The position numbers and the translations under genes were made by a program. From a virus (Duplodnaviria; Heunggongvirae; Uroviricota; Caudoviricetes), in IMG/VR virus record IMGVR_UViG_3300047546_003220: DNA of 64,000 bases; one strand, given 5' to 3'. This document shows, one piece after another, positions 8,278 through 45,184 of the stretch. Positions within the stretch are counted from its first letter, which is position 1, and each line of letters starts with the position of its first letter. The notes under the pieces were generated by a model. It searched no databases, had not been told where the DNA came from, and worked only from the letters and a program-made list of their open reading frames with translations.

Positions 8278-8359
8278 GTCCACAATAATTATGAACTCAA
8301 CTTTACATGCCCATAGTTTTTGTATTAACAAATGGTTAAGATATCAATAAATAAAAAAA

Positions 8360-12532: not shown

Positions 12533-12567
12533 CTGTCGTATTTTCAGCAAATATAAAGTAATTGTTG

Positions 12568-15107: not shown

Positions 15108-15521
15108 ATGGAAAAAAAATCACAAGAGTGGTTAGAAAAGTTCAGAAATACATTGGGTGAAAAGTATAAGTACATCTTAACTTCAGAGCTCAAAAATTAT
15201 GAAGTGCTAAGTTGTTTTTGTGATGAAGTGATTTTAGATAAAAATGACGAGTTGATAGAAATAAGTTTGGATATCCATGTGGATTTCATGGGTGGGTGTA
15301 ATGGTGATTCATATTCAATCGGTTACATGATAAACCAAATGAACGATGACTTAAGAGCTGTATTATATGAATTTATTGTTGATAAAAAAACTTTAAAATT
15401 CAGAAAAGCAAGTGAAAATGACCCAATGTTAAATGACGGATTATTTTTAGACTTCATTTATAAAATTGATGAGAAACACGAAGCCAAGATTTTTTATAAA
15501 TACGAATACGAAGAGTTATAA
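15108..15521 (+). CDS. hypothetical protein (first gene of a plus-strand island). The ATG is at 15108; the track start at 15054 is probably an extension.
   Basis: ORF with an ATG start; divergent from the 14626..15048 gene. Confidence 0.35.
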   Translation: MEKKSQEWLEKFRNTLGEKYKYILTSELKNYEVLSCFCDEVILDKNDELIEISLDIHVDFMGGCNGDSYSIGYMINQMNDDLRAVLYEFIVDKKTLKFRKASENDPMLNDGLFLDFIYKIDEKHEAKIFYKYEYEEL

Positions 15522-16387
15522 TGATAAGTAACGAAAAGATATATAAGATTGCCAAGAATTTACATGAGTTCACGGGACTACACACTTACAGTTCCCCAAC
15601 CAATGTAATTACCCTTTTCAAAAATAGGAGGGACCAAACAACAGAATACATAAGAAATTTCGGACCAGATAATTTCGTTAAGATTTGTATTGCAATGTGG
15701 GGAATATCAAGTCAGGCATCATTTGAAGAAATTGAAAGATGGTATGAGGAATTGTTTTTTGCAACTGTGTTTTACACAGATGGGGATTACCATGAAAATG
15801 AGTGTGATGACTGTAGCGGGAATGGAAGTGTAGACTGTGATTATTGTGATGGGAATGGAAGAATTGATTGTGATGACTGTGACGGAAGCGGTAAAATTAG
15901 TTGTGATACATGTGATGGAGATGGTGAGGTTGAGGATGGTGGTGATACGAAGACTTGTGAAACTTGTGATGGTGATGGTGATGTATATTGTGATACTTGT
16001 GACGGTGACGGCTACGAAACATGTGACCAATGTTCGGGTGGAGGTAGTGAAGAATGTAGTGAATGTGATGGTAGTGGTACAATAGTATCTGATTTTGAAA
16101 AGAATTATTATGTCCAATTAATCGCATCTTGGAATCCAACACTCAAAACTAAATGTGAATTAGAAGAGGAAACAATGAAGCCAATAACCTCTCAAACCAA
16201 ATTTGAATCTCTAAATTCCGTGATGATATTAAACACCGATGAAAGCTATGCTGAATTAGATACTGAGGTTCAAGAACATAAAATATACTGTTTGCAGTTT
16301 ATGGGAGACTCACCAAGATTAAGTCTATCTCCATTTGATACTAAAATAGATATGGTAGCTTGGGACGCTGACCACCTTTATTTATGA
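15521..16387 (+). CDS. protein with about ten tandem CxxCxGxG zinc-finger repeats of the DnaJ cysteine-rich type
   Basis: …CDDCSGNGSVDCDYCDGNGRIDCDDCDGSGKISCDTCDGDGEV…CETCDGDGDVYCDTCDGDGYETCDQCSGGGSEECSECDGSG…. Confidence 0.55.
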   Translation: MISNEKIYKIAKNLHEFTGLHTYSSPTNVITLFKNRRDQTTEYIRNFGPDNFVKICIAMWGISSQASFEEIERWYEELFFATVFYTDGDYHENECDDCSGNGSVDCDYCDGNGRIDCDDCDGSGKISCDTCDGDGEVEDGGDTKTCETCDGDGDVYCDTCDGDGYETCDQCSGGGSEECSECDGSGTIVSDFEKNYYVQLIASWNPTLKTKCELEEETMKPITSQTKFESLNSVMILNTDESYAELDTEVQEHKIYCLQFMGDSPRLSLSPFDTKIDMVAWDADHLYL

Positions 16388-23818: not shown

Positions 23819-24166
23819 ATGATTGTTGAAATTAACGAAAATTATTTTAAAGTTAAAACTTTAACAGACCCAAAATCACAAAAAGTTGGGATGATGAATA
23901 AAGTTTTTGATGACTCATTTAATGGTTTATTATTTTTAATGGGTGGAAAGAAACAATGTTTTTGGATGAAAAATTGTATCATTCCGCTCGACATAATTAT
24001 TATAAAAAATAATGTAATAGTCAACATTCACCACGATTGTCCTCCATGTTTAGAGGAGCCTTGTCCAAGTTATTGTGGTAATGGTAATATTGTTTTGGAA
24101 GTTGAAGGTGGTACTTGTGAGTTGCTTGGTATTGAGGCTGGCGATTCGGTTGAATATCACATTTAG
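23819..24166 (+). CDS. DUF192 (COG1430) family protein. The ATG is at 23819; the track start at 23804 is TTG.
   Basis: …NGLLFLMGGKKQCFWMKNCIIPLDIIII…VNIHHDCPPC… matches the conserved DUF192 core pattern. Confidence 0.4.
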   Translation: MIVEINENYFKVKTLTDPKSQKVGMMNKVFDDSFNGLLFLMGGKKQCFWMKNCIIPLDIIIIKNNVIVNIHHDCPPCLEEPCPSYCGNGNIVLEVEGGTCELLGIEAGDSVEYHI

Positions 24167-24702
24167 TTTTTCCAAATAGTTTCGTTCACGTCTTCTCTAT
24201 TTCCAATAAATCTTGCCAAAACAAAGAAGAAATCACTTAATCTGTTAAGATAGATTGTGATTGGGTGTAGTTTTTCGAAATTATCCAATACTTTACATTC
24301 TAATACTTCAATTTCAGTTCTTCTTGCAATTGTTCTACAAATATGTGCTAAACAACTAGCTCTTGTACCTTTTGGTAAGATAAAATTTTTCAGTGGTGGT
24401 AACTTTTGATTCATCACATCCATAGCATCCTCTAACAACTTTACATCCTCTTCGGTAACTTCAGTTAATTCTGTTTTATTATCGTTGATAATCATGGACC
24501 CCGCATTGAAAAGATTCCATTGGATTATTTCCAAATCAGCATGTGAATTATAGGTCTCACTTCGGAGTAATCCTACAAATGAGTTAAGTTCATCGAGTGA
24601 ACCTACAGCCTTAATTTCTTGAATTGTTTTGGGAACCCTTCGGCCTGATAACAAACTTGTTGTGCCGTCGTCACCTTTTTTTGTGTATACTTTGTTTGCC
24701 AT
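24163..24702 (-). CDS. PduO-type ATP:cob(I)alamin adenosyltransferase. The ATG start is at 24702 (MANKVYTKKGDDGTTSL); the track start is TTG.
   Basis: The N-terminal motif VYTKKGDDGTTSLLSGRRVPK…AVGSLDELNSFVGL is the signature of the PduO/MMAB family. Confidence 0.7.
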   Translation of the reverse strand: MANKVYTKKGDDGTTSLLSGRRVPKTIQEIKAVGSLDELNSFVGLLRSETYNSHADLEIIQWNLFNAGSMIINDNKTELTEVTEEDVKLLEDAMDVMNQKLPPLKNFILPKGTRASCLAHICRTIARRTEIEVLECKVLDNFEKLHPITIYLNRLSDFFFVLARFIGNREDVNETIWKN

Positions 24703-24720
24703 ACACAAATAATAAGTCAA

Positions 24721-26136
24721 TTATTGTTCGACTTCAACTTTTGAGGAATTAATTTTTTCTTTGATTTTTTCAACCATTTTCTTTCCCACTTCCTTCATAA
24801 ACTTTATATAGGGCACATCGGGTTTGTCGGGTGAATATCTATATGGGTCTTCGGATGGTCTTGTTTTTCTACCTAAATAATTGAGACCTGAAATATTTGT
24901 AATACACTTATGTCCTCCAGATTGAGATTGAATAAAGTCCCACATGTTAATTCCAACTTTATCTAACACATTTTTTTCCTCTTCAGTTAACTCAGAAAAA
25001 GGTTTGTCCATAATTGGTTTCAATTTGGATATAATTTCTTCTCCTCCCTCAATCATTTGAAATTTACCCCCAAATAGTGCATCAAAATCCTTAAATGTAA
25101 ATCCAACACTTTCAGGTCCAACAGAAATTTCACTTATCCATTTCAAAGTTGAAAGAGGTATTACTCTTTTTTTCAGTGCAGGTTCATATTCCAATAAAAC
25201 TTCTTGTGCTATCTCCCCCAAATTAACTCCCTTAAGTTGTCTTTCTTTTTTAAAAGGGTTACAAGATGCCTGTAATAGTCCCATTGGCCACAATAAAACT
25301 AAAAAGTCTGCATCAGGGTGAACTCTGAATGGAGTATATCTATCATAGGAACCACTTTTCATACTTCCAGCTCCATATTGGAAAATTATTCCGTCTTGAT
25401 AAACTCTTTTTGGATAATTTTTCATTTGTTCGTGATAATCTTCTGACCTTTTTTGTAGAACATCAACTGTTTCTGCATTGGTAGCTTTCATCCACGATTT
25501 AATGTTATTCAATATTGAAAGTAATGATGGTTCTGAATTCATTACAAGGTCTTCCATGAAACCTTTTTTATTCTTGAAGGCTAATATTAGTTTGTTAATA
25601 ACTAATCCAAGTAACATCTTGTTTTTAGACAGTGTCTTATCTTTATCAAGTCTAAAAATGTAATTAACTACATCTTCAGGATTCAAACCTTGCTTCACAA
25701 AGTCAGCCGAATCTACAGTGCTAATTAACGTGATGTCCTGAGAGGGAAATAAATCTTTTGGTGATACTATTTGTGAAATTGTCTCTACGTTGGAACGAGC
25801 TTGTCTGAATGATTTTGATGCTTCTTTTTCCGCACCAACTTGCTTATCATGGTGGTCAGTGTGTATTTTAAACATTGGTTTACCATGTGCAAAATCCACT
25901 AAAACTGGCATTGTATCACCTTCCGCATCATTTTTTTTAATAGCGAATTCTTTGTCCCCGTATTGAATGACGTGAGCTCCGACAACTTCTATACCATTAT
26001 CCTCAAGATATTTTTTCATGGCAATTGCGGTGGTCACACCATCTAAATCTTGGTGAAAATAAATTTCGGCTTTGGGATATCTCTTCCTCAAAGCCGATAT
26101 ATCTCTGAGACCTGACTCAACAATTACTCTTTTCAT
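24721..26136 (-). CDS. DHH/DHHA1-family phosphoesterase (NrnA/RecJ-like catalytic core with an inserted region)
   Basis: N-terminal FHQDLDGVTTAIAM (DHH motif I), …FKIHTDHHDKQ (DHH motif III) and C-terminal …QSGGHKCIT… (the DHHA1 GGH motif). Confidence 0.6.
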   Translation of the reverse strand: MKRVIVESGLRDISALRKRYPKAEIYFHQDLDGVTTAIAMKKYLEDNGIEVVGAHVIQYGDKEFAIKKNDAEGDTMPVLVDFAHGKPMFKIHTDHHDKQVGAEKEASKSFRQARSNVETISQIVSPKDLFPSQDITLISTVDSADFVKQGLNPEDVVNYIFRLDKDKTLSKNKMLLGLVINKLILAFKNKKGFMEDLVMNSEPSLLSILNNIKSWMKATNAETVDVLQKRSEDYHEQMKNYPKRVYQDGIIFQYGAGSMKSGSYDRYTPFRVHPDADFLVLLWPMGLLQASCNPFKKERQLKGVNLGEIAQEVLLEYEPALKKRVIPLSTLKWISEISVGPESVGFTFKDFDALFGGKFQMIEGGEEIISKLKPIMDKPFSELTEEEKNVLDKVGINMWDFIQSQSGGHKCITNISGLNYLGRKTRPSEDPYRYSPDKPDVPYIKFMKEVGKKMVEKIKEKINSSKVEVEQ

Positions 26137-28066: not shown

Positions 28067-28107
28067 CGAGGGAATTTTCTTTTATAAATATCCAAACAAA
28101 TAAAAAA

Positions 28108-28125
28108 AAGGGTCTTATGACCCTT
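28108..28125 (-). terminator. hairpin terminator (AAGGGTC ttat GACCCTT) overlapping the MTase stop codon
   Basis: An inverted repeat with flanking A-runs and T-runs. Confidence 0.45.
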
Positions 28126-28969
28126 TCATTTCCAATTTCAATTGTTTGTTCCTGTCGACAAAGTGTTGAACTCTATCATTTGCAACCTCACAATAGTTTT
28201 GACTGAGTTCAATTCCAATCCATTTCCTGTGAAGTATCTCAGCAGCCGCAAGGCTTGTTCCTGAACCACAGAATGGGTCTAATACCAAATCATTTTTATA
28301 TGTTAATATCTTGATGGCTTTCATGGGAATATCCATTGAGAAAGTAGCTTTAGTCATTTGTTTTGTGTCGGCAAAATAATCCCACTGACCATATACTAAT
28401 TCCATGAACTCTTTTTTATCTTCATCTTGGTATACAGTCTTTTTCTTTATCGTTCCGTCTTCTTGTTGTAAATCAATTATGTCTCCCTTCCATTGAGTTT
28501 CCCCTTTGATTTTTTTGATGTGATTTTTTTTATAAGCTAGAATTACACATTCTTTTGGATTATAGATATAAGGTGCGGATGGAGACATCCACGAACCCCA
28601 AGCAGTGGTTTTACTCCTATGTGGTGAATTTTCATTCAGGTCTACAAGTCCATAAAATTTATATCCTATGTCCTGCATAATTTTCCAAAGTTCTGCCACC
28701 ATGAAAATTCTACCTCCCTTGTCTTGACGGTTTATTTCGTAAGGAATGTTAAGTGCGATTCTCCCGTCATCTTTCAGAACCCTAAAAGCCTCCGACAACC
28801 ATAATACTGAAAATTCTTTGTATTCACTAAAAGGGACATCATCATTGTGGGTATCGTATTCGATACCAACACCATAGGGTGGTGAAGTTACTATGAGGTC
28901 AATTGAATTTTCAGGGAAAGTTTTCATGACCTCAATACAATCTCCATTATATATTTTATTTGTTTCCAT
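28115..28969 (-). CDS. beta-class amino DNA methyltransferase (N4-cytosine or N6-adenine; SPPY catalytic motif precedes the FxGxG AdoMet motif)
   Basis: …DLIVTSPPYGVGIEYD… (motif IV) followed by …LDPFCGSGTSLAAAE… (motif I). No partner restriction enzyme is visible, so it appears to be an orphan. Confidence 0.75.
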   Translation of the reverse strand: METNKIYNGDCIEVMKTFPENSIDLIVTSPPYGVGIEYDTHNDDVPFSEYKEFSVLWLSEAFRVLKDDGRIALNIPYEINRQDKGGRIFMVAELWKIMQDIGYKFYGLVDLNENSPHRSKTTAWGSWMSPSAPYIYNPKECVILAYKKNHIKKIKGETQWKGDIIDLQQEDGTIKKKTVYQDEDKKEFMELVYGQWDYFADTKQMTKATFSMDIPMKAIKILTYKNDLVLDPFCGSGTSLAAAEILHRKWIGIELSQNYCEVANDRVQHFVDRNKQLKLEMKGS

Positions 28970-29370
28970 TAAAGTTTCCCCTCTTGTTTTAATTGTTCAC
29001 GAATTTTAGTCGCAGATATCTCTCCAACTTCTTGAGGTGGTATGTGTTCAATAATATCATATCCAACTCCTCTCCCAAAATTAACCGATTCAATATCAGG
29101 TATGATAATAACTTTAACTGTTTCATCACCCAAAAGTTTCCAAAGTTCATTTTTTATATTCCTTTCAACCTCTTGTGCGGTGAAAGGATTTTTTTCATCT
29201 GGCTGAATGTCTCGAATACAAATCAAAACATTTTTTCCTTCGTTAAGTCTTTGGTCAATTAACCACCTATGACCTGCGTGCCAAGGTTGCCATCTACCTA
29301 TGAACATTGAATATTGTTTTGACCCCGTGTTTTTTAATTTAGGGTCACCCTCTACGTGAATTTTTTGCAT
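28969..29370 (-). CDS. HxGH-type nucleotidyltransferase (cytidylyltransferase-like fold; the NMN-adenylyltransferase NadM-like motif GRxQPxHxGH)
   Basis: …FIGRWQPWHAGHRWLI… matches the (T/H)xGH nucleotidyltransferase signature. It is short at 133 aa; the substrate is unknown. Confidence 0.5.
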   Translation of the reverse strand: MQKIHVEGDPKLKNTGSKQYSMFIGRWQPWHAGHRWLIDQRLNEGKNVLICIRDIQPDEKNPFTAQEVERNIKNELWKLLGDETVKVIIIPDIESVNFGRGVGYDIIEHIPPQEVGEISATKIREQLKQEGKL

Positions 29371-29794
29371 ACTCTAATACTTTTTTTGTTGATTCTTCAA
29401 CACTCTCATTGGTGGTGTTGATACTGAGATATCTTTCTGTTGGTTTTTCATATTCCTTAACAAAAAAATCTTCTCTACCTCTGATTTCTGTAGTGTGTAT
29501 ATAAACTTCAACAAGATTATCTCCCATTTTATCTTTGAACCTATCTCTTTGGTCTTTATAAGGTGAAACCAAAGAAACTAATACGTCTTTACCTTGATTA
29601 TGAAGGTATTGGGCTATCTGTTGAGCTAACTCAATATTTTTTCTTCGACCCGTCTCGGAGTAGTCTTTATTTTCAAACAAATCTCTGAGGTCGTCTCCGT
29701 CAATATGAAAAACTCTATGGTCTCTAAGTCTTAGAATTTCCTCACAGATGGTAGTTTTTCCTGAACCAGGTTGTCCTGTTAACCAAATAATCAT
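29345..29794 (-). CDS. cysC: adenylylsulfate (APS) kinase-like P-loop kinase
   Basis: MIIWLTGQPGSGKTTI… (Walker A), then …HIDGDDLRDLF…ETGRRKNIELA…VLVSLVSPYKDQRD…, which aligns block for block with E. coli CysC (LWFTGLSGSGKST…LDGDNVRHGL…DRKENIRRVGEVA…LTAFISPHRAER). Confidence 0.65.
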   Translation of the reverse strand: MIIWLTGQPGSGKTTICEEILRLRDHRVFHIDGDDLRDLFENKDYSETGRRKNIELAQQIAQYLHNQGKDVLVSLVSPYKDQRDRFKDKMGDNLVEVYIHTTEIRGREDFFVKEYEKPTERYLSINTTNESVEESTKKVLEYAKNSRRG

Positions 29795-30021
29795 TTTTCT
29801 AAGTTTGTTATTTTTCTGTTTAGATAGAAAGCGGCCTTTTTCAGGTCTTCCAATTCTTTTGTTTGGTCTTTCTTTCCTGCACGGGCAACATATTTTACCA
29901 CATTGAAAAGATAAGCATCTTTATCTAATTCCCAAGCCTCACATACTTTAATTACTTCGTAAGGATTGTCTGCCCCACCATAATGTTTGGGACCATTTAC
30001 CATTTCATTTTCAGAATGCAT
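29791..30021 (-). CDS. DUF3310 phage protein
   Basis: …PKHYGG…PYEVIKV…NVVKYVARAGKK…DLKKAAFYL… matches the conserved HY / KY.WR.G.K / DL.KA..YL blocks of this phage-associated family. Confidence 0.55.
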   Translation of the reverse strand: MHSENEMVNGPKHYGGADNPYEVIKVCEAWELDKDAYLFNVVKYVARAGKKDQTKELEDLKKAAFYLNRKITNLEK

Positions 30022-30111
30022 ATTAAGTTGTTTTTAAAAGATATATAATTATTACCAACCAACTTACAACTAGAGCTGTCCAAAAGTATAATAGGTCCCT
30101 ATCTAATTTTT

Positions 30112-30696
30112 TCATTTTTTCCAAGAATTTTTATCATACCCGAGAAGTTCAAAATAGTATGAGTTATTATAATATATTAAATCAGCTAATTTTTTATCAA
30201 TTACTGGTCTGTTTGTATAAACTTTGTTTTTGAATGGATTGTTATTGATAAGTTTTTCCATTTCACCTGACTTATAAAATTCAGAGTATCTTATGAAAGG
30301 GATTTTCAAATAATCTTCCAAGAGATTTTCCACTCTGATGAAATAATCAGGTTTTCTGTATTTTAAAAAATTATAAAAGTTGATGTGATAATCACTTTGA
30401 TATGTTTCTTCTAAACTTTTTATGAGATTTTCTTGAGCTCCAGCTCCGTCGAAACCAGCAGTACAACTTGTGTAGGGATTTCTGCAGGTCATAATAAGTT
30501 CATAATCTAAATGGTTTTCAGGGAGTCCAATATAGTGATTGTGCTCAAAACCTTTTTTCCAAATCTTACCCCCTTTACTTACATTGTAAGAAACAAAATC
30601 AAAATTATCGAAAATCTTGCACGCAAGCCTTGATGCTGTGTGTGCAGGAGTCCACGTAACAACTTTATTTTTTTCTGATATGTTTATTGCTTGCAT
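30112..30696 (-). CDS. hypothetical protein; weak sulfotransferase-like cues (…VVTWTPAHTAS… and …CRNPYTSC…)
   Basis: Motif resemblance only, and tentative. It is placed first in the operon that contains the APS kinase. Confidence 0.2.
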   Translation of the reverse strand: MQAINISEKNKVVTWTPAHTASRLACKIFDNFDFVSYNVSKGGKIWKKGFEHNHYIGLPENHLDYELIMTCRNPYTSCTAGFDGAGAQENLIKSLEETYQSDYHINFYNFLKYRKPDYFIRVENLLEDYLKIPFIRYSEFYKSGEMEKLINNNPFKNKVYTNRPVIDKKLADLIYYNNSYYFELLGYDKNSWKK

Positions 30697-30813
30697 TTTT
30701 ACCCCACTTGTTTTCCATGTATTCTATGTACCTATGGGTCTTATTACCGTTATAGAGCATCCAAGCAAAATAGTAATCAAACCACCATTCAATTTTCTTA
30801 AGAAATTTATTCA

Positions 30814-31029
30814 TTAAGCAAAGTATTTGGAAATTGCCTCCAATTTATCATCAGCATCCACCAACATTTGTAGAGCTTCTTCTGCATTTTTATAGAAATC
30901 TCCTGTTGAGTGGTCTCCAATACCGCTCGCGTGATTTGATAATAGTTCCAAGGTTAAAAGCGCTTTAGCTTTTTGTGCTTCCGCATCCAAACGGAGCATC
31001 TCGATTAAATGAATTTTTACGTTTCCCAT
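30814..31029 (-). CDS. hypothetical small protein
   Basis: A 71-aa ORF in the gene train. Confidence 0.3.
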   Translation of the reverse strand: MGNVKIHLIEMLRLDAEAQKAKALLTLELLSNHASGIGDHSTGDFYKNAEEALQMLVDADDKLEAISKYFA

Positions 31030-37031: not shown

Positions 37032-39608
37032 TTAGATTCCCAAACTTTTTTCTAAAATCTCTAATTTCTTCTCATTATAATCTAAGATTTCACTTTGTTC
37101 TTTGATTGCTTCCAAACACGCAGCAATCAACGAGTCATATTTTACAACTAACACATTTTCGTCATCTTCTTTACCTGCCACCAATTCAGGGAAGGCAACT
37201 TGTAATTCTTGGGCAATGAAACCAACATCAACTAAACCATCATTTGTTTTTTCGTTGTTCCAGTTGTAATTTACCCCTCTTATCTTGGATATTTTATCTA
37301 TAGCGTTAGTGATAGGTCGGATATTTGTTTTATATCTTATATCTGACGGACCCGTAGGTCCCGTAGGACCTGGAGCTCCTTGTGCACCTTGAGGTCCTGT
37401 AGAACCACCAGGACCAGCAGGTCCTTGTGAACCTTGTGAGCCTTGGGCTCCTTGGTTACCAGGAGGTCCTCCAACACCTTGAGCACCCTGACCACCTTGG
37501 GCTCCTTGAGCCCCTTGTCCACCTGTTGGTCCTTGTGCTCCTTGAGGTCCTTTTGGTCCTTGTGTACCTTGGGCACCTTGTCCACCACCAGGTCCTTGAG
37601 CTCCAACACTACCTTGGGCTCCTTGTCCTCCTTGAGCACCTTGCCCGCCACCAGGTCCTGTGGCTCCTTGAGCGCCTTGTCCTCCCTGAGAACCTTGTGA
37701 ACCTTGACCACCCTGAGACCCTTGAGCACCCTGAGCTCCTTGAGCACCTTGACCTCCTTGAGCACCCTGTCCACCTTGTGACCCTTGAGCTCCTTGAGCA
37801 CCCTGTCCACCTTGTGCTCCTTGAGCACCCTGTCCACCTTGTGCACCTTGGGGCCCTGTTTGACCCTGAGCACCTTGGGCTCCTTGCGCCCCTTGTCCAC
37901 CTTGTGAACCCTGATTACCCGTTGCACCTTGAGCTCCTTGACCACCTTGTGCTCCCTGTCCACCCTGTGAACCTTGAGCACCTTGTCCTCCTTGAGACCC
38001 TTGAGCTCCCTGAGCACCTTGACCTCCTTGTGCTCCTTGTCCTCCTTTGGCGCCTTGTGAACCTTGAGCACCTTGAGCACCTTGTCCTCCTTGAGAACCT
38101 TGAGCACCTTGTCCTCCTTGGCTACCCTGAGCCCCTTGAGCGCCTTGTCCACCTTGTGAGCCTTGGTTACCCACGGGACCTTGTGAACCTTGAGCTCCTT
38201 GAGCACCTTGTCCACCTTGTGAACCTTGGGCTCCTTGAGCTCCTTGACCTCCTTGCGAACCTTGAGCTCCTTGTCCTCCTTGTGAACCTTGACCTCCTTG
38301 AGCGCCCTGTCCACCCTGAGCTCCTTGTGCTCCTTGTCCTCCTTGTGAACCTTGAGCTCCTTGAGCACCTTGACCTCCTTGAGCTCCTTGAGCACCTTGT
38401 CCTCCTTGTGAACCTTGAGCTCCTTGAGCACCTTGACCTCCTTGAGCTCCTTGAGCACCTTGTCCTCCTTGAGAACCTTGTGAACCAGTGTTACCTTGTG
38501 AACCAACAGCTCCTTGAGAACCTTGACCACCCTGAGAACCTTGGGCACCTTGTGCTCCCTGTCCACCTTGCGCTCCTTGAGCACCTTGTCCTCCTTGGCT
38601 ACCCTGTGACCCCGTATTTCCTTGGGAACCAACTGCACCTTGTGAACCTTGTCCTCCTTGGGAACCCGTTGCACCTTGTGCACCCTGTCCTCCTTGAGCA
38701 CCTTGAGCTCCTTGTCCACCTTGACTTCCTTGTGACCCAGTATTACCTTGAGAACCTTGTCCACCTTGGGCACCTTGACCACCTTGGGAACCAGTTGCAC
38801 CTTGTGCTCCTTGTCCTCCTTGAGCACCTTGAGCTCCTTGTCCCCCTTGGGAACCTTGGGACCCCGTATTTCCTTGAGAACCTTGTCCTCCTTGAGCACC
38901 TTGACCACCTTGGGAACCAGTTGCACCTTGCGCTCCTTGTAACCCTTGAGCCCCTTGAGCACCTTGTCCACCTTGGCTACCCTGTGAACCTGTATTACCC
39001 TGAGAACCTTGTCCTCCTTGAGAACCCTGACCACCTTGTGAGCCAGTAGCACCTTGTGCTCCCTGACCCCCTTGAGCACCTTGGGCTCCTTGTCCACCTT
39101 GGCTACCCTGTGAACCTGTATTACCTTGCGCCCCTTGACCTCCTTGAGAACCTTGACCTCCTTGAGAACCTTGCGCTCCCTGACCACCTTGTGCACCCTG
39201 GCCTCCTGTTGAACCTTGAGCACCCACCGCTCCTTGTGAACCTGTTGCACCCGAGGCTCCTGTAGGTCCAACTGAACCTTGAGCACCTGTGGGACCTTGA
39301 GCACCCGTTGGTCCGACTGAGCCTTGAGCACCTGTAGGACCTTGAGCTCCTTGTGGTTCGGGATTTCCCAACCAACCGACTGAAGTTATCAATGGGTCTA
39401 AAGCATTGTTAACTAACTTGGTAGTCAACTTCAAATCCGCGTCACTAACCCTAAATGTTGGAGCGGCTGAATTCCATGTAAGATAGGTTGTTGCACCTCT
39501 TTTCCATTGGAGAGTACCACTAGATACAACAAGTAGAGTTGATGTACTTCCAGTGTCCAAAAAATCTATCTGTCCACTACCTGGGGTTATTATAATATCT
39601 TCAGCCAT
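37032..39608 (-). CDS. collagen-like (Gly-X-Y) fibre protein 1 with a C-terminal endosialidase-chaperone (Peptidase_S74) autoproteolytic domain
   Basis: N-terminal globular domain ([13 protein letters not shown]…), about 670 aa of GAQ/GSQ/GGQ triplets, then …[32 protein letters not shown]…VGFIAQELQ…, the S74 intramolecular chaperone signature (S-D-x-R-x-K-x-N-I … Y/F-x-W). Confidence 0.8.
37347..39355. repeat. Gly-X-Y triplet tandem repeat tract of fibre 1, with a super-repeat of about 126 bp
   Basis: Continuous (GNN)n coding with recurring 42-residue units ([42 protein letters not shown]). Confidence 0.8.
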
Positions 39609-42315
39609 TTATTTTTTCTTTCAATAAATTTATTCTCTTCAAAATATTGTCGATTCTGACTTGTTGTTCTTTTATTGCTCCGATTCCAAATGCAACCATT
39701 GAATCATAGTCAACAGACTTAAATCCTTCATCATCAGTCCAAACGACTTCGGGAACAACTTTTTCTAAGTCTTGAGCAATGAATCCGACAGAACCTCCCG
39801 TAAAGGCATATGGTGTAGCAATATTTGGGTCTTCAACGATTTTTTTATGGGGTAACCAATCAAATCTAACTCCCTGAATTAATTTTATGGTATCCATAAC
39901 ATCCTGTAAAGGTTTGATGTTATCCTTTAATCTTTGGTCTGATGGTGGACCAGTTGGACCTGTAGGGCCTTGTGACCCTTGAGCTCCCTGACCCCCTTGT
40001 GACCCTTGACCACCTGTGGCGCCTTGTGCTCCTGTTGAGCCTTGTGCTCCTGTTGGACCGTTGTTAGGTCCTGGTGCTCCACCTGGACCTTGAGCACCCT
40101 GAGCTCCTGTATTTGCACCTTGAGCTCCTTGAGCACCTTGGTTACCTGGTAATCCTTGAGCACCTTGTGCTCCAGTGTTAGCACCTTGAGCACCTTGGGC
40201 TCCTTGAGCTCCTTGAGCACCAACGTTACCTTGGGCTCCTGTGTTTGCACCTTGGGCTCCTTGTGAACCTTGAGCACCTGTTCTTCCTGTTGCACCTTGG
40301 GCTCCTGTACTTGCTCCTTGTGCACCTTGGGCTCCTTGAGCTCCTTGAGCACCTATGTTTCCTTGAGCTCCTGTAGGGGTTCCTTGTGCACCTTGGGCTC
40401 CTTGCGCACCCGTTGAACCAACAGCTCCTTGAGCTCCTTGAGGTCCTCCTTGAGCTCCTGTTGAACCTTGGGCTCCCTGAGCTCCAACCGCACCTTGTGA
40501 ACCTTGGCTAGCTCCTTGAGCTCCTTGTGAACCTTGAGCACCTTGAGCTCCTGTATTACCTTGAGCACCTGTACTAGCTCCTTGAGCACCTTGAGCTCCT
40601 GTGTTACCTTGAGCACCTGTAGCACCTTGGGCTCCTGTGCTAGCACCTTGGGCTCCTTGAGAACCTTGAGCTCCCTGTGCTCCTGTCGCGCCTTGAGCAC
40701 CTGTACTTGCTCCCTGAGCTCCTTGAGCTCCTGTGCTACCTTGAGCACCTGTAGCACCTTGGGCTCCCGTACTCGCTCCCTGTGCACCTTGACCACCTTG
40801 TGAACCTTGAGCTCCTGTTGCTCCTTGTGCTCCTGTACTTGCTCCCTGAGCTCCTTGTGCACCTTGTGCTCCCGTATTACCTGTGGCACCTTGAGCACCT
40901 GTGGTTCCACCCTGTGCTCCTTGTGCACCTTGTGCTCCCGTATTACCTGTCGCCCCTTGAGCACCTGTGGTTCCACCCTGTGCTCCTGTAGCACCTTGTG
41001 CACCTGTGTTACCTGTAGCACCTTGAGCACCTGTAGTTCCTCCCTGAGCTCCTGTAGCACCTTGGGCACCTGTGTTACCTGTAGCACCTTGAGCACCTGT
41101 AGTTCCACCTTGAGCTCCTTGTGCACCTTGACCTCCTTGTGCACCTTGACCTCCTTGGGCGCCTGTACTTGCTCCCTGAGCTCCTTGTGCTCCTTGAGCA
41201 CCTGTATTTCCTGTGGCTCCTTGTGCTCCCGTTGTGCCTCCTTGCGCTCCTTGAGCTCCCTGTCCTCCTTGGGCTCCTTGACCTCCCTGAGCACCTGTAC
41301 TTGCTCCCTGAGCTCCTTGCGCCCCTTGAGCGCCTGTATTCCCTGTGGCTCCTTGTGCTCCCGTTGTACCACCCTGAGCTCCTTGTGCTCCTTGACCACC
41401 TTGAGCTCCAGTTGAACCTTGAGCACCTGTAGTTCCTCCTTGAGCACCCTGAGCTCCTTGAGCACCTGTATTCCCTGTGGCTCCTTGTGCTCCTGTTGGT
41501 CCACCTTGAGCTCCTTGAGCTCCCTGTCCTCCTTGGGCTCCTGTACTACCTTGTGCTCCCGTAGTTCCTCCCTGAGCACCCTGAGCTCCTTGAGCACCTG
41601 TATTACCTGTAGCACCTTGGGCTCCTGTAGTACCACCTTGAGCTCCTTGGGCTCCTTGACCACCTTGGGCACCTGTACTACCCTGTGCACCTGTACTTGC
41701 TCCTTGGGCTCCTTGAGAACCTTGAGCGCCTGTGTTACCTGTAGCACCTTGTGCTCCTGTCGTACCACCTTGAGCGCCTTGGGCTCCTTGACCACCCTGA
41801 GCTCCTGTACTACCCTGTGCACCTGTACTTGCTCCTTGGGCTCCTTGAGCACCAGTGTTACCAGTGGCTCCCTGTGAACCTTTTGCCCCTTGAGCACCTT
41901 GTCCACCTTTTGCTCCTTGCGAACCTTGTCCACCTTGAGCACCTTGTCCTCCCTGAGCTCCTTGACCACCTTGTGCTCCCTGACCTCCCTGTGCTCCTTG
42001 AGCTCCCTGACCTCCCTGTGCTCCTTGAGCACCTGCGATACCCGCTGTTGGTCCTGCCCATGTACCATCAGAGTTAACCATCTTAACACCACCAACATAT
42101 AAACCTTTGCCTGTACCTGTAACAGAACTTCCACTTACAGTTACTGTTGCTCCAAGTGTTGCAATATTGGAGTTAGTCGTAGATGAAACAACAACTACCC
42201 CGTCAGCTCCTACGTTGAGTTGGATTCTTCCACCACTCGCATCTTCAAATACAGTATGTGGAGCGGTGTTACCACCAGCATTTCCATTAGGATATATTAT
42301 AACGTTAGTGGGCAT
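39601..42315 (-). CDS. collagen-like fibre protein 2 with a C-terminal Peptidase_S74 chaperone domain
   Basis: N-terminus [15 protein letters not shown]…; a GXY tract with a periodic one-residue interruption (GGTT or GAST) every 22 residues; C-terminus …[32 protein letters not shown]…VGFIAQDLE…. Confidence 0.8.
39943..42040. repeat. Gly-X-Y tract of fibre 2 with a super-repeat of about 66 bp (22-residue unit [22 protein letters not shown])
   Basis: Regular repeats visible in both nucleotide and protein sequence. Confidence 0.8.
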
Positions 42316-45184
42316 TTTTCAATTTTAATTCTAAATCTTTTATTTGATTTTCAATATCATCAATAAATAGTTGTTGTTCCTTTATACCCTCAACTAATAC
42401 TGCATTCAATTTAACATATTCAATATAATAGTAACCTTGGTGGTTGACTTTTACTACCGTCGGATAAAACTCTTTTACGTTTTGAGCTATCAAACCAACT
42501 GAGTGAATCTTTTTGAGTCCATTAATATCTCTATATTTTCCGTCAGTTAATTTTTCATTCCAATCGAATTCAACAGTATCAATCTGAAGAATTTTATTTA
42601 AAGAGTCCTCAAGAGTTACAATATTTCTTTTAAGTCTCCTATCCGAACAGAAGTAGTTGTAAATATAGTATCCACCACTTCCTGTATATCCAGCACAAGA
42701 ACTACCTTGGTATCTCACGTTCCTTGCACCTGCGGTCCACTGACTACAATCTGAAGCGGTATATAACTGTACGTCAGCACATCCACTCCATGAAACTGTT
42801 GTATAATAGTAGAACGAACCACAACTGTATGGATAATTACATAATGAATATTGAGTACAGTTTGACCATACCAAGTTGGCATTACAAGTTCCACTTGGTC
42901 CTGTTGGACCTGTTGGACCTTGAGCCCCTTGAGCACCTGTATTTCCTGTAGCACCTTGTGTTGAACCAACGTATCCTGTACCACCTTTCGCACCTTGAGC
43001 ACCTTGTGGTCCTGGTGAACCTCCAGGTCCTTGTGAACCTGTCGCACCCGTTGAACCTTGAGCTCCTGGATGACCTGTATTTCCTGCTGGTCCTGTAGGT
43101 CCTGTTGCACCTACAGCTCCTTGTGCTCCTGGGTGTCCTGTTGCACCCTGAGCTCCTTGAGAACCCCCTGAGTTTGTAGCACCTTGCGCTCCTGGATGTC
43201 CCGTGGCTCCTTGTGACCCTTGAGAACCTCCTGTTCCTGTATTTCCTTGTGCACCTGTGTTTCCGACAGCTCCCTGTGAACCTTGATTACCTCCAGCCCC
43301 TGTATTTCCTTGAGCACCTGTATTACCTGTGGCACCTTGGACCCCTTGTGGCCCTGTAATGTTTGCGGCTCCTGTCGGTCCTTTAGCTCCCTGTGAACCT
43401 GTAGCACCCTGAGAACCTGCAGCGTTTGGTGCTCCTTGAGCACCTGTATTACCTGTGGCCCCTTGAGCTCCTGTTGAACCTCCGCCTCCTGTGGCGCCTT
43501 GTGCTCCCGTATTACCCACCGCACCTTGGGAACCAGTATTTCCTGCAGCTCCTCCACCACCCTGTGCTCCTGTATTACCTGTTGCTCCTTGAGCTCCTGT
43601 TGAACCAGCAGCACCTCCCGCACCTTGTGCTCCTGTGTGACCAACAGCACCTTGAGAACCAGTATTTCCGCCTGCTCCTCCTGCACCTTGTGCTCCTGTA
43701 TGCCCTGTGTTTCCTTGAGCACCTGCAGAACCTCCTCCACCTGTAGCACCTTGTGCTCCTGTGTGTCCTACAGCCCCTATGGAACCTTGAGCCCCTGTGG
43801 GACCTCCCGCGCCTGTTGGACCTACTGCTCCTGTGTTTCCCGTTGCACCTTGTGAACCTGTCGCTCCTACAGCTCCTGTTGGACCTACTGACCCTGTTGG
43901 ACCGACAGCACCTTGTGAGCCAGTTGGACCTGTTGCACCTGTTGGTCCAACTGCACCTGTTGGTCCTGTTGCTCCTTGAGAACCAGTCGGACCTGTTGCA
44001 CCTGTTGGCCCCACATTACCTTGAGCTCCAGTGGGTCCTTGTGCTCCTGTATTACCTGTAGCACCTTGTGCTCCTGTATTACCTGTGGCACCAATTGAAC
44101 CCTGAGCTCCCGTTGGACCAGTATCACCTGTTGGACCTACGTTACCTTGTGCACCCGTTGGACCTTGAGCACCTGTATTACCTATAGCTCCTTGTGCACC
44201 TGTATGTCCTTGTGCACCTGTCGAACCTTGGGCTCCTGTAGGACCTACAGCTCCTGTTGGACCTACGTTACCTTGTGCACCCGTTGGACCTTGTGCTCCT
44301 GTTGGACCAACCGCACCTGTCGGACCAACCGCACCTTGTGCTCCTGTTGAGCCTTGAGCACCTGTCGGACCAACTGCTCCTGTTGGACCTACGTTACCCT
44401 GTGCACCCGTTGGACCCTGAGCACCTGTTGGACCTACCGAACCTGTCGGACCAACCGCACCTTGTGCTCCTGTTGAGCCTTGAGCACCTGTTGGACCTAC
44501 TGCTCCTGTTGGACCTACGTTACCTTGTGCTCCTGTCGGACCTTGAGCACCTGTATTACCTATGGCTCCTTGTGCTCCTGTGTGTCCTTGAGCACCTGTA
44601 GAACCTTGGGCTCCTGTCGGACCAACCGCTCCCGTTGGACCTACGTTACCTTGAGCTCCTGTTGGACCTTGTGCTCCTGTGTTACCTGTGGCACCTTGAG
44701 CACCTGTATTTCCTGTAGCACCTTGAGCTCCTGTTGGACCTGTGTCTCCTGTAGCTCCTTGAGCTCCTGTATCACCTGTGGCACCTTGAGCACCTGTAGA
44801 ACCTTGAGCACCTGTGTTTGCACCTTGAGCACCTGTATTACCTGTAGCTCCTTGTGAACCTGTGGCACCTTGAGCACCCGTTGGACCCGTGGCTCCTTGC
44901 GCTCCAGCAATTCCTGTGTCGGGACCAATCCAATTGGCAGTACCATCGATTACCTGTACTCCTCCAATTGTAAAATTGTTTCTAACGTTCAACGATACCA
45001 CAGATATAATCGCATTAGAAATTTGAACCGATACGGTATTGACTTGAGTAGGAGAACTAATATTGATTGTTGAGCCTGATACGACTTTCCAACTACTCGT
45101 ACTGTTGTTTACCCAGTTAATATACGGTATACGGTCGGGTTGCGGAGCTAACGTATTACTTGGAACTATTAAGATATCGCCCAT
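42305..45184 (-). CDS. collagen-like fibre protein 3 with a Cys-rich module and a C-terminal Peptidase_S74 chaperone domain
   Basis: N-terminus [15 protein letters not shown]…; GPT/GAQ/GNV triplets; a Cys-rich segment (…[30 protein letters not shown]…[15 protein letters not shown]…SSCAGYTG…); then …[31 protein letters not shown]…[11 protein letters not shown]…. Confidence 0.8.
42916..44920. repeat. Gly-X-Y tract of fibre 3 ([28 protein letters not shown]… super-repeats)
   Basis: A (GNN)n tract with recurring 42-residue units. Confidence 0.75.

Follow-up and report, generated by a model that had tools for sequence, protein, structure and literature searches.

Candidate genes for PAPS synthesis and sulfate transfer in the gene array of a very large phage

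Known sulfation systems and the layout of the phage array

The bifunctional PAPS synthases (metazoan PAPSS1/2; bacterial and fungal Sat-CysC, e.g. that of Aquifex, 2GKS) couple an APS kinase to an adenylyltransferase of the HxGH superfamily. In PAPSS the kinase is N-terminal and the adenylyltransferase C-terminal, and fusions in both domain orders occur among the PAPS synthases as a whole. Their adenylyltransferase has a catalytic unit of ~390 aa with a PUA-like domain. In ATP sulfurylase the RNP and GRD loops bind phosphosulfate (PMC3779200). In rhizobial Nod-factor sulfation (a NodH-type sulfotransferase with NodP/Q, i.e. CysD/CysN-C) the genes for sulfate activation, the sulfotransferase and a DUF2061 membrane protein are clustered, on a Mesorhizobium huakuii plasmid in the order sulfotransferase, DUF2061, cysD, cysN, and the acceptor is a lipochitooligosaccharide. 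Moreover, bacterial operons that combine a beta-hydroxylase-type 2OG-Fe(II) oxygenase, a sulfotransferase and a conventional PAPS synthetase were predicted to hydroxylate and then sulfate their substrates, for which tail-collar or collagen-like proteins were proposed (Iyer, Abhiman, de Souza, Aravind 2010; PMC2938197).

We have analyzed a window of 64,000 nt, the complete stretch taken from a Caudoviricetes record (IMGVR_UViG_3300047546_003220). The ORF listing of the window contained the five minus-strand ORFs described in an earlier, sequence-only reading (28115-30696):

30112-30696, minus strand: g194, predicted sulfotransferase-fold protein, 194 aa
30022-30111, minus strand: intergenic gap between g194 and the DUF3310 gene, 90 nt
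29791-30021, minus strand: DUF3310 protein, 76 aa (PF11753)
29345-29794, minus strand: short APS-kinase homologue, 149 aa (PF01583)
28969-29370, minus strand: minimal HxGH nucleotidyltransferase (NT), 133 aa (GRWQPWHAGH; CTP_transf_like)
28115-28969, minus strand: beta-class SPPY DNA methyltransferase, 284 aa (PF01555), last gene of the array
28106-28127, minus strand: intrinsic-terminator-like hairpin (stem, loop and T-run)

As read from the letters, the DUF3310 and kinase genes meet in ATGA (4-nt overlap), the kinase and NT genes share 26 nt, and the NT and methyltransferase genes meet in TAATG (1-nt overlap). The proposal that all five genes overlap by 1-26 nt thus applies to four of them (4, 26 and 1 nt), whereas g194 stands 90 nt upstream. 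Nor is g194 the leading gene, as it had been called, since overlapping minus-strand ORFs precede it (30665-30814, 30814-31029 and others further upstream). Because the 90-nt gap includes TACTTTTG, which is similar to the Bacteroidota -7 promoter element, it may hold an internal promoter. The array is best read as a longer polycistronic unit of which g194, the kinase and the NT form the functional core. This gene trio of a very large phage most likely makes PAPS, the universal activated-sulfate donor, and transfers its sulfate.

The kinase and its nucleotidyltransferase partner

Sequence similarity places the kinase in the APS-kinase family. It matched PF01583 (APS_kinase) with 70.1 bits (gathering score 21.1), its top PDB relatives were APS kinases throughout (E as low as 7.6e-13), and it retains GQPGSGKT (7-14), DGDDLR (32-37), Tyr45, Arg50, Asn53, VSP (76-78) and YEKP (115-118). 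The block-for-block alignment with CysC that had been claimed holds over roughly the first 100 residues only, where the P-loop, DGD..R, aromatic, Arg, Asn and SP positions are kept; some 18 lid residues (RDxKGLYKKARxGxIxxFTG) are absent, and the score against TIGR00455 was 78.5 bits with a cut-off of 138.7. The dN/dS of the gene is 0.04-0.11. We propose that the protein is an APS 3'-kinase that would make PAPS.

Homologues of APS kinase can use substrates other than APS, as exemplified by Cj1415, and Campylobacter Cj1416/Cj1415 lead to 3'-phospho-CDP-amidate. The phage pair might similarly produce another 3'-phosphorylated nucleoside-diphosphate donor, such as that compound or a 3'-phospho-NAD-like one. 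The window kinase and its short fused counterparts (see below) are divergent, lack the lid and score under the equivalog cut-offs, which would be in line with such a role, as would the fact that the second substrate of the NT cannot be read from its sequence. Nevertheless, we regard this as rather improbable: the sulfotransferase-fold neighbours carry canonical PAPS-binding motifs, numerous homologues of the NT are joined to APS kinase domains that score high and are nearly complete, and in Mesorhizobium DUF2061 is linked with a sulfotransferase and cysDN.

The GRxQPxHxGH signature recognized earlier in the NT is indeed present as GRWQPWHAGH (25-34), together with NPFT (61-64), GRGVGY (99-104) and ISATKIR (118-124). 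The protein matched CTP_transf_like with 23.4 bits, its AlphaFold model is poor (pLDDT 58) and its dN/dS is 0.01-0.06. It had been called NMNAT/NadM-like, and the archaeal and NadM-type NMNATs are in fact its nearest solved relatives (PDB 2qjt, 1f9a) and its top curated ones (NCBIfam NF002243, 4.5e-10), they share GRxQPxHxGH, NPFT and ISxTxxR with it, as does NadR, and the JGI annotation is NMNAT. NadR itself is a pairing of a P-loop kinase with an NMNAT and thus provides a precedent for NAD salvage, in which the phage kinase would act on nicotinamide riboside and the NT would be an NMN adenylyltransferase, so that the phage rebuilds NAD+; a Nudix gene lies 5 kb from the pair. Yet the scores against curated NMNAT models were only 37-39 bits where the cut-offs are 127-181, and the likeness to the solved structures covers the N-terminal half alone. 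The NT is ~40 residues shorter than NMNATs, their C-terminal half, which binds the substrate, is absent or replaced, and the segment past strand 3 has given way to an invariant GR(D/G)VGY loop (GRG in the window, mostly GRD in the family). Furthermore, the partner is specifically an enzyme of the APS-kinase family, with no NadR or Nrk structure among its PDB matches, and the context is one of sulfation: the neighbours are sulfotransferases and DUF2061 proteins, and none of the commonest neighbour clusters was recognized as NadV, PnuC or a fused Nudix. We therefore consider NAD salvage a poor candidate.

A comparison across the NT family (532 representatives at E<=1e-10, of which 85 were scanned for domains) points to a different partner function. 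An APS_kinase domain was fused, in either order, to 28 of the 85, whereas AAA_28 was matched by only four. Seven of ten individually examined fusions contain a near-full-length APS_kinase domain (139-231 bits), in five of them following the NT and in two preceding it. Individual, weak matches to the ATP-sulfurylase family PF01747 were obtained for 13 of the 85 (best E 6.4e-6, cut-off not reached); the window NT did not match it. More specifically, the RxQPxHxGH and YGR(D/G)VGY motifs of the family parallel the RNP and GRD loops of ATP sulfurylase, as do RxQPxH..H, GR(D/G) and ISxTxxR in a comparison with the PAPS synthases (PMC3779200). Taken together, the fusions and the ATP-sulfurylase matches suggest for the NT a role in adenylylating sulfate, as partner of the kinase, in preference to that of an NMNAT, and we propose that it is a sulfate adenylyltransferase (an ATP sulfurylase analogue) that would make APS. 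It differs from the PAPS synthases in that the family domain measures only ~105-130 aa and scores under the PF01747 cut-off, and in that two distinct genes, which overlap, encode the halves in the window, where the kinase moreover is without a lid.

In phrog_10255 the kinase and the NT form a single polypeptide. Such fusions are found in the Xylella phages Salvo, Sano and Bacata, in Xanthomonas, Stenotrophomonas and Clavibacter phages and in DLP_6, and the fusion profile had at least 472 matches among IMG/VR contigs and at least 297 among the genomes of bacteria. APS kinases were again the best match of the fused-family profile (E 1.6e-16), and the common order in phages, kinase N-terminal and NT C-terminal, is that of PAPSS. 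No cyanophage turned up when 50,697 cultured phage records were queried with either the fused gene or the kinase of the window. The recurrent fusion, together with the 26-nt overlap in the window, is evidence that the kinase and the NT are a functional pair, probably in sulfate activation. The stripped-down enzyme pair is also common in SAR11, a bacterium abundant in the ocean, and in many further phages, where it has apparently escaped study.

The sulfotransferase-fold protein and the neighbourhoods of the fused genes

The third member of the proposed core, g194, had no direct match in Pfam, PHROG or NCBIfam. The alignment of its family (n=50) revealed WLPxKTGS, which resembles the 5'-phosphosulfate-binding (PSB) loop, RNPYxRFxS, which resembles the 3'-phosphate-binding (3'-PB) motif, and an invariant His54; 14 family members matched Sulfotransfer_1 and nine Sulfotransfer_2 (best E 1.5e-6). 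Together with a confident AlphaFold model (pLDDT 95.1) this assigns a predicted sulfotransferase fold to g194, the sole ORF of the window with such a fold, in line with the 'weak sulfotransferase-like cues' of the sequence-only reading. The closest viral structural matches of the model are annotated but uncharacterised 'sulfotransferase family' proteins of ~190-240 aa from Prochlorococcus phage P-SSM7, Synechococcus phages S-T4 and ACG-2014f, Roseobacter phage SIO1 (gp5.1) and giant viruses; these matches were weak (best E 1.9e-3), and no sequence homologue of g194 was found in the 50,697 cultured phage records. The window copy itself has a PSB loop that reads TPAHTAS, with His for Lys and an Arg gained four residues further on, and a 3'-PB motif that reads RNPYTSCTA and has lost the Ser. 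The lack of both the canonical loop Lys, a catalytic residue, and the Ser of the 3'-PB motif counts against a sulfation reading. The dN/dS of g194 is ~0.1, with dS saturated. A sulfotransferase adjoins the kinase and the NT in about half of the relatives of the window clade, and in the other half that position is empty of one. We propose g194 as the sulfate-transferring enzyme.

The reading that we favour, and hold to be somewhat probable, is thus that of a split miniature PAPS synthase feeding the phage sulfotransferase g194. We infer its catalytic steps and acceptor from the gene structure, the family and fold assignments, the fusions and the neighbourhoods. The NT would adenylylate sulfate (ATP + sulfate -> APS + PPi), the kinase would phosphorylate the 3'-OH of APS to yield PAPS, thereby pulling the unfavourable first step forward, and g194 would use PAPS to sulfate an acceptor.

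The neighbours of fused kinase-NT genes are in line with this reading. We examined 82 distant viral loci, all with a fused gene, and counted neighbours within 6 kb. A sulfotransferase was present in 26 loci, distributed over 8 of the 15 fused-gene clusters at 65% identity, 2OG-Fe(II)-type oxygenases in 30 and DUF2061 in 51; 62 of the 82 had one or more of these three. Several loci are tight operons, with the order 2OG oxygenase, sulfotransferase, fusion in L127 and sulfotransferase, Asp/Arg-hydroxylase, fusion, DUF2061 in L183, L179 and L198. Two of the neighbouring sulfotransferases, in which the HIPKTGGTS, His and RNPxxRxxS motifs are canonical, exceeded the Pfam Sulfotransfer_2 cut-off (55.7 and 40.3 bits). 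In some relatives of the window clade a 2OG-FeII_Oxy_3 gene (63.6 bits) separates the kinase gene from that of the NT. Since oxygenases of the 2OG-Fe(II) or Asp/Asn-hydroxylase type are so frequent in related modules, the acceptor would probably be a hydroxyl group set by such an enzyme on a protein, peptide or glycan. The window phage has three collagen-like tail-fibre genes (37032-45184), reminiscent of the substrates proposed for the bacterial operons; no oxygenase of the 2OG type was found among the window ORFs scanned, and no collagen-like ORF within 6 kb of the 82 fusions.

The phage modules contain the same three kinds of components as the rhizobial cluster. On the symbiosis plasmid of M. 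huakuii a DUF2061 gene with 52% identity to the phage one lies between the sulfotransferase and cysD-cysN, and the DUF2061/cysDN genes adjoin nodBC-nodI and an ABC-transporter permease gene. There the activating enzyme is the CysD/CysN GTPase type, whereas the phage modules have the HxGH NT; the window has no DUF2061.

The pair could also be an auxiliary metabolic function in sulfur assimilation, making PAPS, or only APS, for a PAPS/APS reductase in hosts poor in sulfate assimilation. A nearby sulfotransferase is lacking in 56 of the 82 loci, no sulfotransferase or DUF2061 was found in the regions fetched around the fusions of Salvo and DLP_6 (5-7 kb per side), and in SAR11 the pair lies in a core-genome context with no sulfotransferase. 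For SAR11 genomes an APS kinase and aprBA have been reported, with sat only for HTCC9565 (PMC3448164; PMC2211403), which fits such a role. We nevertheless judge it unlikely, if worth some weight, considering the sulfotransferase-fold gene directly upstream in the window and the frequent sulfotransferase and oxygenase neighbours elsewhere, which often overlap the fused gene. No PAPS or sulfite reductase was recognized among the commonest neighbour clusters, a weak negative as few of these were Pfam-scanned.

The DUF3310 protein, the methyltransferase and the end of the array

Both remaining assignments of the sequence-only reading proved sound: the DUF3310 protein matched PF11753 (56.2 bits), and the methyltransferase matched PF01555 (119.2 bits) and has SPPY (29-32) before FCGSGT (233-238), the beta-class permutation. 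Gene order is conserved among the relatives of the window clade, where DUF3310 lies upstream of the kinase, and the kinase and NT are linked to the methyltransferase, in 80 out of 80. This conservation does not extend further, as the DUF3310, methyltransferase and DHH proteins of the window had no homologue within 6 kb of any of the 82 distant fusions. Thus, these three are co-transcribed or syntenic neighbours whose association with the kinase and NT is limited to a single, globally syntenic clade, which speaks against the five genes being one functional operon; DUF3310 is co-transcribed with the module and probably not part of it. The DHH protein (24721-26136) has HQDLDG, DHH and GGH motifs, scored 19.5 bits against Pfam DHH (cut-off 28.1) and returned no relative from the PDB by phmmer. 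The suggestion that it removes the PAP by-product is possible and finds no comparative support near the 82 fusions.

The same observations bear on the two pathways that had been offered for the array. The fusions and the sulfotransferase, oxygenase and DUF2061 neighbours favour PAPS-based sulfation. An undescribed DNA or nucleotide hypermodification by the kinase, NT and SPPY methyltransferase is, in contrast, highly improbable. Translational coupling to the methyltransferase in the window and all 80 relatives, and the matches of DUF3310 to PHROG families labelled 'nucleotide kinase', would agree with it; however, the association is confined to the one clade, even though an annotated DNA methyltransferase lies partly under the fused-gene match in the Casjensviridae record Bhz60, and no glycosylase, transferase or hydroxymethylase that would modify bases was detected in the array.

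The array is closed by a terminator-like structure, as had been noted. On the minus strand (28127-28106) AAAGGGTC-ATAA-GACCCTTT is followed by a T-run. Terminator-like sites numbered two in the 3.2-kb scanned region and 1.8 were expected in shuffled sequence; it is not by site count but by position that the hairpin is notable, its nine-pair stem enclosing a 4-nt loop that holds the methyltransferase stop codon.

Layout and conservation of the gene array

The genes under study lie on the minus strand, in the following order of transcription:

30112-30696, minus strand: g194, a 194-aa sulfotransferase-fold protein, no direct family match
29791-30021, minus strand: DUF3310 protein, 76 aa (PF11753, 56 bits)
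29345-29794, minus strand: kinase, a 149-aa APS-kinase homologue (PF01583 APS_kinase, 70.1 bits)
28969-29370, minus strand: NT, a 133-aa HxGH nucleotidyltransferase (PF01467, 23.4 bits; GRWQPWHAGH at residues 25-34)
28115-28969, minus strand: DNA methyltransferase, 284 aa (PF01555, 119.2 bits)

The sequence-only reading, which described five overlapping genes led by g194 and closed by a terminator, was largely right. All five ORFs are present, and a hairpin with a T-run, whose loop contains the methyltransferase stop codon, closes the array at 28127-28106 on the minus strand. However, overlap joins only four of the genes. The junctions, as read from the sequence, are ATGA between DUF3310 and the kinase (4-nt overlap), 26 shared nucleotides between the kinase and NT, and TAATG between NT and the methyltransferase (1-nt overlap), whereas 90 nt separate g194 from DUF3310. 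Moreover, g194 is not the leading gene: it is preceded by more overlapping small ORFs (30665-30814, 30814-31029 and beyond), and the array thus does not start at 30696. The 90-nt gap (30022-30111, minus strand) holds TACTTTTG, about 55 nt upstream of the DUF3310 start codon; this stretch resembles the TAnnTTTG -7 element of Bacteroidota, and there may be an internal promoter at that position. The assignment of the last gene to the beta-class DNA methyltransferases was borne out by its PF01555 score and by the position of SPPY (motif IV, residues 29-32) ahead of FCGSGT (motif I, FxGxG, residues 233-238). No recognisable nuclease was found in the adjacent ORFs.

A comparison of 80 syntenic IMG/VR loci, in which the kinase is 70-100% identical, showed that the order DUF3310-kinase-NT-methyltransferase is constant in all 80, as a check on gene order in relatives had called for. 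In nearly all of them a DUF5856 gene and a DHH-like gene come next; at locus L001, for instance, a 718-aa ORF is DHH-like (70% identity), so that the DHH gene is present there as well. A g194 homologue (28-80% identity) occurs in about half of the loci, always just upstream of DUF3310. Since the whole region is collinear within the clade, the conserved gene order alone says little on function. In eight relatives (L014, L034, L035, L037, L057, L059-L061; e.g. L057:2374-3129) a 251-aa 2OG-FeII_Oxy_3 gene (63.6 bits) is located exactly between the kinase and NT genes, and in three others (L038-L040) a 180-aa ORF without a family assignment occupies the same site. Homing endonucleases had been expected as inserts here; one of the two insert types proved to be the 2OG-Fe(II) oxygenase instead.

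The kinase and the nucleotidyltransferase as one probable unit

Outside the clade the two proteins are also encountered as a single polypeptide. In phrog_10255, a 230-aa family labelled 'kinase', the N-terminal half corresponds to the window kinase and the C-terminal half to the window NT. The fused gene occurs in the Xylella phages Salvo, Sano and Bacata, the Xanthomonas phages Seregon and AhaSv, the Stenotrophomonas phages Suzuki, BCU1, Bhz60 and DLP_6, and Clavibacter phage 33. With a profile of the fusion, at least 472 matches were obtained in IMG/VR and no fewer than 297 in bacterial genomes, most of the latter in Pelagibacteraceae; the pair is also present in SAR86 and in soil Alphaproteobacteria. 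Kinase and NT therefore very probably act together. The recurrent fusion, in either order, of an adenylyltransferase to an APS kinase is the architecture of the known PAPS synthases, and the sequence of ATP sulfurylase, APS kinase and sulfotransferase is the textbook logic of the pathway. By analogy, NT would form APS and the kinase would convert it in the reaction APS + ATP -> PAPS + ADP. That the pair activates sulfate to PAPS appears probable to us. New are the nature of the putative adenylyltransferase, a NadM-like domain of about 110-130 aa instead of a Sat or CysDN enzyme, the lid-less form of the kinase, and the phage-borne and widespread occurrence of the module. In the literature, we found no characterisation of PAPS synthesis by phages or of phage-encoded sulfation.

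The kinase scores well above the Pfam gathering score (70.1 versus 21.1 bits), but over profile positions 4-110 of 152 only, and it stays below every NCBIfam cut-off (e.g. 78.5 versus 138.7 bits for TIGR00455). The alignment with CysC, which had been described as running block for block, thus does not extend over the whole kinase. The residues that had been asked for are nevertheless there: GQPGSGKT (7-14), DGDDLR (32-37), Tyr45, Arg50, Asn53 and VSP (76-78) all align with canonical CysC positions, and their Arg, aromatic, Arg, Asn and (I/V)SP counterparts are those which, judging from APS kinase structures, we take to bind APS. Compared with three canonical CysC sequences, about 18 residues of the lid segment RDxKGLYKKARxGxIxxFTG are deleted, leaving RGREDFF..YEKP as a remnant. 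Because of the missing lid residues and the failed equivalog cut-offs, we refer to the protein as an APS-kinase homologue rather than a proven CysC. Down to an E-value of 7.4e-4 its PDB relatives are all APS kinases, the one other match being a marginal P-loop similarity to FtsH; the kinase half of the fusion profile likewise retrieves APS kinases (E 1.6e-16).

Stand-alone APS kinases are found in some jumbo phages. The 462-kb genome of an uncultured phage (LR756500.1, L086:5956-6498) encodes a full-length, canonical CysC whose lid is intact, and in the Ralstonia phages phiRSL1 and RsoM2USA the fusion query matched over the kinase half only. A further candidate (L085/H4, OQ572406.1, 'Pseudomonas phage Y4', UNVERIFIED) was rejected as a phage enzyme, as the record appears to be high-GC bacterial DNA; there, a canonical CysC is located beside a 414-aa sulfotransferase-like and a 591-aa glycosyltransferase-like ORF, plus a sensor kinase-like ORF (identified by eye from the translations).

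The description of NT as NMNAT/NadM-like held for its motifs, GRxQPxHxGH (25-34), NPFT (61-64) and ISxTxxR (118-124), and not for the curated scores or for a full-length alignment including the NMN-binding half. By sequence the protein is closest to archaeal and NadM-type NMNATs, over its N-terminal half only. It scores 37.4 bits against a cut-off of 181.2 for TIGR01527 and 39.4 against 127 for NF002243, over residues 21-96, and PDB alignments cover the N-terminal 50-70 residues. A direct link to ATP sulfurylase was sought as well. The window NT does not match the ATP-sulfurylase model PF01747, whereas 13 of the 85 NT-family representatives match it individually (best E 6.4e-6); the single match inspected scored 21.6 bits, under the cut-off of 24.3. 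A PDB profile search of the fused family retrieved NMNATs and no Sat catalytic domain.

More specifically, the loops of NT allow a comparison with ATP sulfurylase, in which the RNP loop (QxRNPxHxxH) and the GRD loop contact the sulfate and ribose of APS (PMC3779200). The window NT has GRWQPWHAGH, in which the Arg and Gln are present in swapped order relative to QxRNPxHxxH, and GRGVGY, where the family consensus at the GRD-like loop is YGRDVGY. The invariant family motifs GRxQPxHxGH, YGR(D/G)VGY and ISATxxR would parallel the RNP and GRD loops. An AlphaFold model of NT reached a pLDDT of 58, from an alignment of members at least 86% identical. In a 50%-identity representative library, 1215 relatives of NT were found at E<=0.001 and 532 at E<=1e-10, in three architectures: stand-alone, kinase-NT and NT-kinase. 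The APS_kinase domain (PF01583) is fused in 28 of the 85 representatives, and 7 of 10 fusions scanned singly, in both orders, contain a near-full-length APS kinase domain (139-231 bits). The NadR-type model AAA_28 is matched by only four of the 85.

The sulfotransferase-fold protein, the distant fusions and a possible acceptor

The predicted structure of g194 has a sulfotransferase fold; among viral structure predictions it is matched best by proteins of cyanophages, Roseobacter phage SIO1 and giant viruses that are annotated as belonging to the sulfotransferase family. At the level of profiles, g194 has no match to PF00685 or PF03567, and its family members give weak matches only (Sulfotransfer_1, Sulfotransfer_2). 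The only PDB profile matches of the 50-member family are two sulfotransferases, with non-significant E-values. In the family His54 is invariant, and the PSB and 3'-PB motifs resemble those of sulfotransferases. Its consensus for the 5'-PSB loop is LPxKTGS, to be compared with PK[ST]G[ST][ST], whereas the window copy (TPAHTAS) and its closest relatives read TP(A/M/P)(H/S)TAS(R/K)L and have lost the Lys. Exactly these sequences have gained an Arg/Lys four residues downstream, which looks like a compensatory change. In the window copy Arg72-Asn-Pro-Tyr of the 3'-PB motif is kept, as is His54; with respect to RxPxxRxxS, the second Arg is Ser77 and the Ser is Ala80. The nearest relatives have lost this Ser too. 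The dN/dS of g194 is about 0.1, a rough value with synonymous sites saturated, which argues against decay. No homologue of g194 or of a distant family member was found among 50,697 records of cultured phages. In relatives of about 317-321 kb the family is multi-copy (loci L088-L091, L102, L105, L107, L108, L114-L119, L122-L125), with paralogues upstream of DUF3310, beside a Band_7 gene some 3 kb beyond a Nudix gene, and elsewhere in tandem pairs or triplets; the copy beside Band_7 is missing from the window. On balance we lean slightly towards g194 being a sulfotransferase that consumes PAPS.

Certain neighbours of the fused gene recur. The comparison covered 82 viral loci at which the identity of this gene to the reference fusion is no more than 43-80%.

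Genes within 6 kb of the fused gene at 82 distant viral loci
Sulfotransferase-like ORF: 26 of 82
2OG-Fe(II) or Asp/Asn-hydroxylase-type oxygenase: 30 of 82
69-aa DUF2061 membrane protein (80.6 bits): 51 of 82
Any of the three: 62 of 82

The sulfotransferase neighbour is spread over 8 of the 15 sequence clusters of the fused gene, and many of the arrangements are tight operons. At L127 a 2OG oxygenase, a sulfotransferase and the fusion follow each other with gaps of 3 and 22 nt; L183, L179 and L198 have the order sulfotransferase, Asp/Arg-hydroxylase, fusion, DUF2061; and at L203 and L208 the start of the sulfotransferase overlaps the end of the fusion. Two of the neighbouring sulfotransferases exceed the Pfam Sulfotransfer_2 cut-off (55.7 and 40.3 bits) and have the canonical HIPKTGGTS, His and RNPxxRxxS motifs. 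A sulfotransferase next to the fusion scores 25.5 bits for Sulfotransfer_1 (cut-off 22), and the fused gene of a Hyphomicrobiaceae genome is immediately followed by a Sulfotransfer_1 gene. Among cellular homologues, the one closest to the phage DUF2061 protein (52% identity) is encoded on a symbiosis plasmid of Mesorhizobium huakuii (L294; NZ_CP050299, 418741-422981), between a sulfotransferase and cysD-cysN and beside nodBC-nodI and an ABC-transporter permease gene. This neighbourhood is a classical sulfation cluster, and DUF2061 may serve sulfate activation or uptake as a small membrane component; no functional study of it was found in the literature. When looked for in the window itself, neither DUF2061 nor a further sulfotransferase was found, nor, among the ORFs scanned, a 2OG oxygenase. 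Taken as a whole, the model in which NT would make APS, the kinase PAPS and g194 a sulfated acceptor is one that we consider reasonably likely.

With regard to the acceptor, the frequent P4H-type and Asp/Asn-hydroxylase-type oxygenases, together with an ORF near the fusion in 11 loci that resembles FAD-dependent tryptophan halogenases (a likeness in sequence only), suggest hydroxylation followed by O-sulfation of a protein, peptide or metabolite. The same order of reactions was predicted for bacterial operons in which such oxygenases and sulfotransferases occur with PAPS synthetases and with tail-collar or collagen-like proteins (Iyer et al. 2010; PMC2938197). The window encodes three collagen-like fibres 7-15 kb from the array, and these are no more than a lead as targets of sulfation or hydroxylation. 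As no collagen-like ORF was found near the 82 distant fusions, and no oxygenase among the window ORFs scanned, a tail-fibre acceptor stays speculative.

Two other proposals fared less well. A DHH/DHHA1 enzyme had been linked to the module as a means of removing the by-product PAP, which is reasonable chemistry that finds no support here. The protein shows the motifs HQDLDG, DHH and GGH by eye and its gene is conserved within the clade, but it scores 19.5 bits for DHH (cut-off 28.1), has no DHHA1 match and, by phmmer, no PDB relative. Homologues of this protein, of the window DUF3310 and of the methyltransferase are all absent near the 82 distant fusions. Nothing indicates the DNA hypermodification route that had been offered as an alternative to sulfation.

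Occurrence in SAR11 and in phages, and the genome of the window

In Pelagibacteraceae the kinase (136 aa) and NT (124 aa) are encoded by adjacent genes in a recurring chromosomal context (L225-L293; e.g. L251:4422-4832 and L279:7989-8363). Of the neighbours, enoyl-CoA hydratase was confirmed by Pfam and the others were identified by eye only. At 21 SAR11 loci NT is directly followed by a HalD/WelO5-like Fe/2OG enzyme. SAR11 genomes are reported to contain APS kinase and aprBA, with sat reported only for HTCC9565 (PMC3448164; PMC2211403), and SAR11 is a textbook example of gene loss in sulfur metabolism (PMC3448164). The NT beside the kinase could be a sulfurylase that has been overlooked there, and the pair may be an unnoticed sulfate-activating or APS-consuming enzyme.

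Considering the phage and SAR11 loci together, a broader reading is possible, to which we adhere only tentatively. The NT family of 105-130 aa would constitute a miniature class of ATP sulfurylase that has gone unrecognised, and would form the smallest known PAPS synthase with the short APS kinase. As parts of the same tentative reading, many uncultured freshwater and marine phages would employ this synthase along with sulfotransferases, 2OG oxygenases and a DUF2061 membrane protein of their own, and so sulfate a component of the virion or the host surface, and the pair in Pelagibacteraceae would be a sulfate-activating or APS-consuming enzyme of SAR11. Should the minimal NT prove to be an ATP sulfurylase, the capacity for sulfate activation has been under-annotated in genomes and viromes, SAR11 included. 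Moreover, given the high frequency of the pair in environmental phages, phages with their own PAPS synthesis and several sulfotransferase paralogues would point to a widespread and unstudied chemical modification, possibly of virions or of the infected cell surface, with effects on adsorption, host range or immunity. Since some cultured phages carry the fused gene (the Xylella phages Salvo and Sano, Stenotrophomonas phage DLP_6), the prediction is directly testable.

A nucleotide search of cultured phages gave a match limited to about 120 nt of DUF3310, and a close cultured relative is thus absent. In metagenomes, proteins near-identical to those of the window are very abundant. Some relatives of the kinase and g194 reside on IMG/VR contigs of 317-321 kb, and the window therefore probably derives from a jumbo phage. 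Its DNA is AT-rich, with about 35% GC outside one island (0.5-0.57, at 37-45 kb) that corresponds to three consecutive collagen-like tail-fibre genes, and it contains one tRNA-Met. The following further genes were recognised:

5800-8331, minus strand: TonB-dependent-receptor-like outer-membrane protein, 843 aa (CarboxypepD_reg, Plug, OMP_b-brl_3)
11291-12550, minus strand: 419-aa ORF with a terminal HNH motif, beside the UvrC-like ORF
12568-13833, minus strand: UvrC-like ORF (GIY-YIG and UvrC RNase H endonuclease domains, 143 bits)
15521-16387, plus strand: separate protein with a BSD2/DnaJ cysteine-rich domain
24163-24720, minus strand: PduO-type ATP:cob(I)alamin adenosyltransferase (PF01923, 167 bits; above the TIGR00636 cut-off)
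37032-45184, minus strand: the three collagen-like tail-fibre ORFs, 858-959 aa
51074-51913, minus strand: second DNA methyltransferase (D12/Dam class, 74 bits)
52279-53193, minus strand: full-length DnaJ (J domain, CXXCXGXG and C-terminal domains)

The PduO gene occurs in only a subset of the clade relatives. The TonB-dependent-receptor-like gene is an unusual cargo for a phage; being of the Bacteroidota type, it hints at a host from that phylum.
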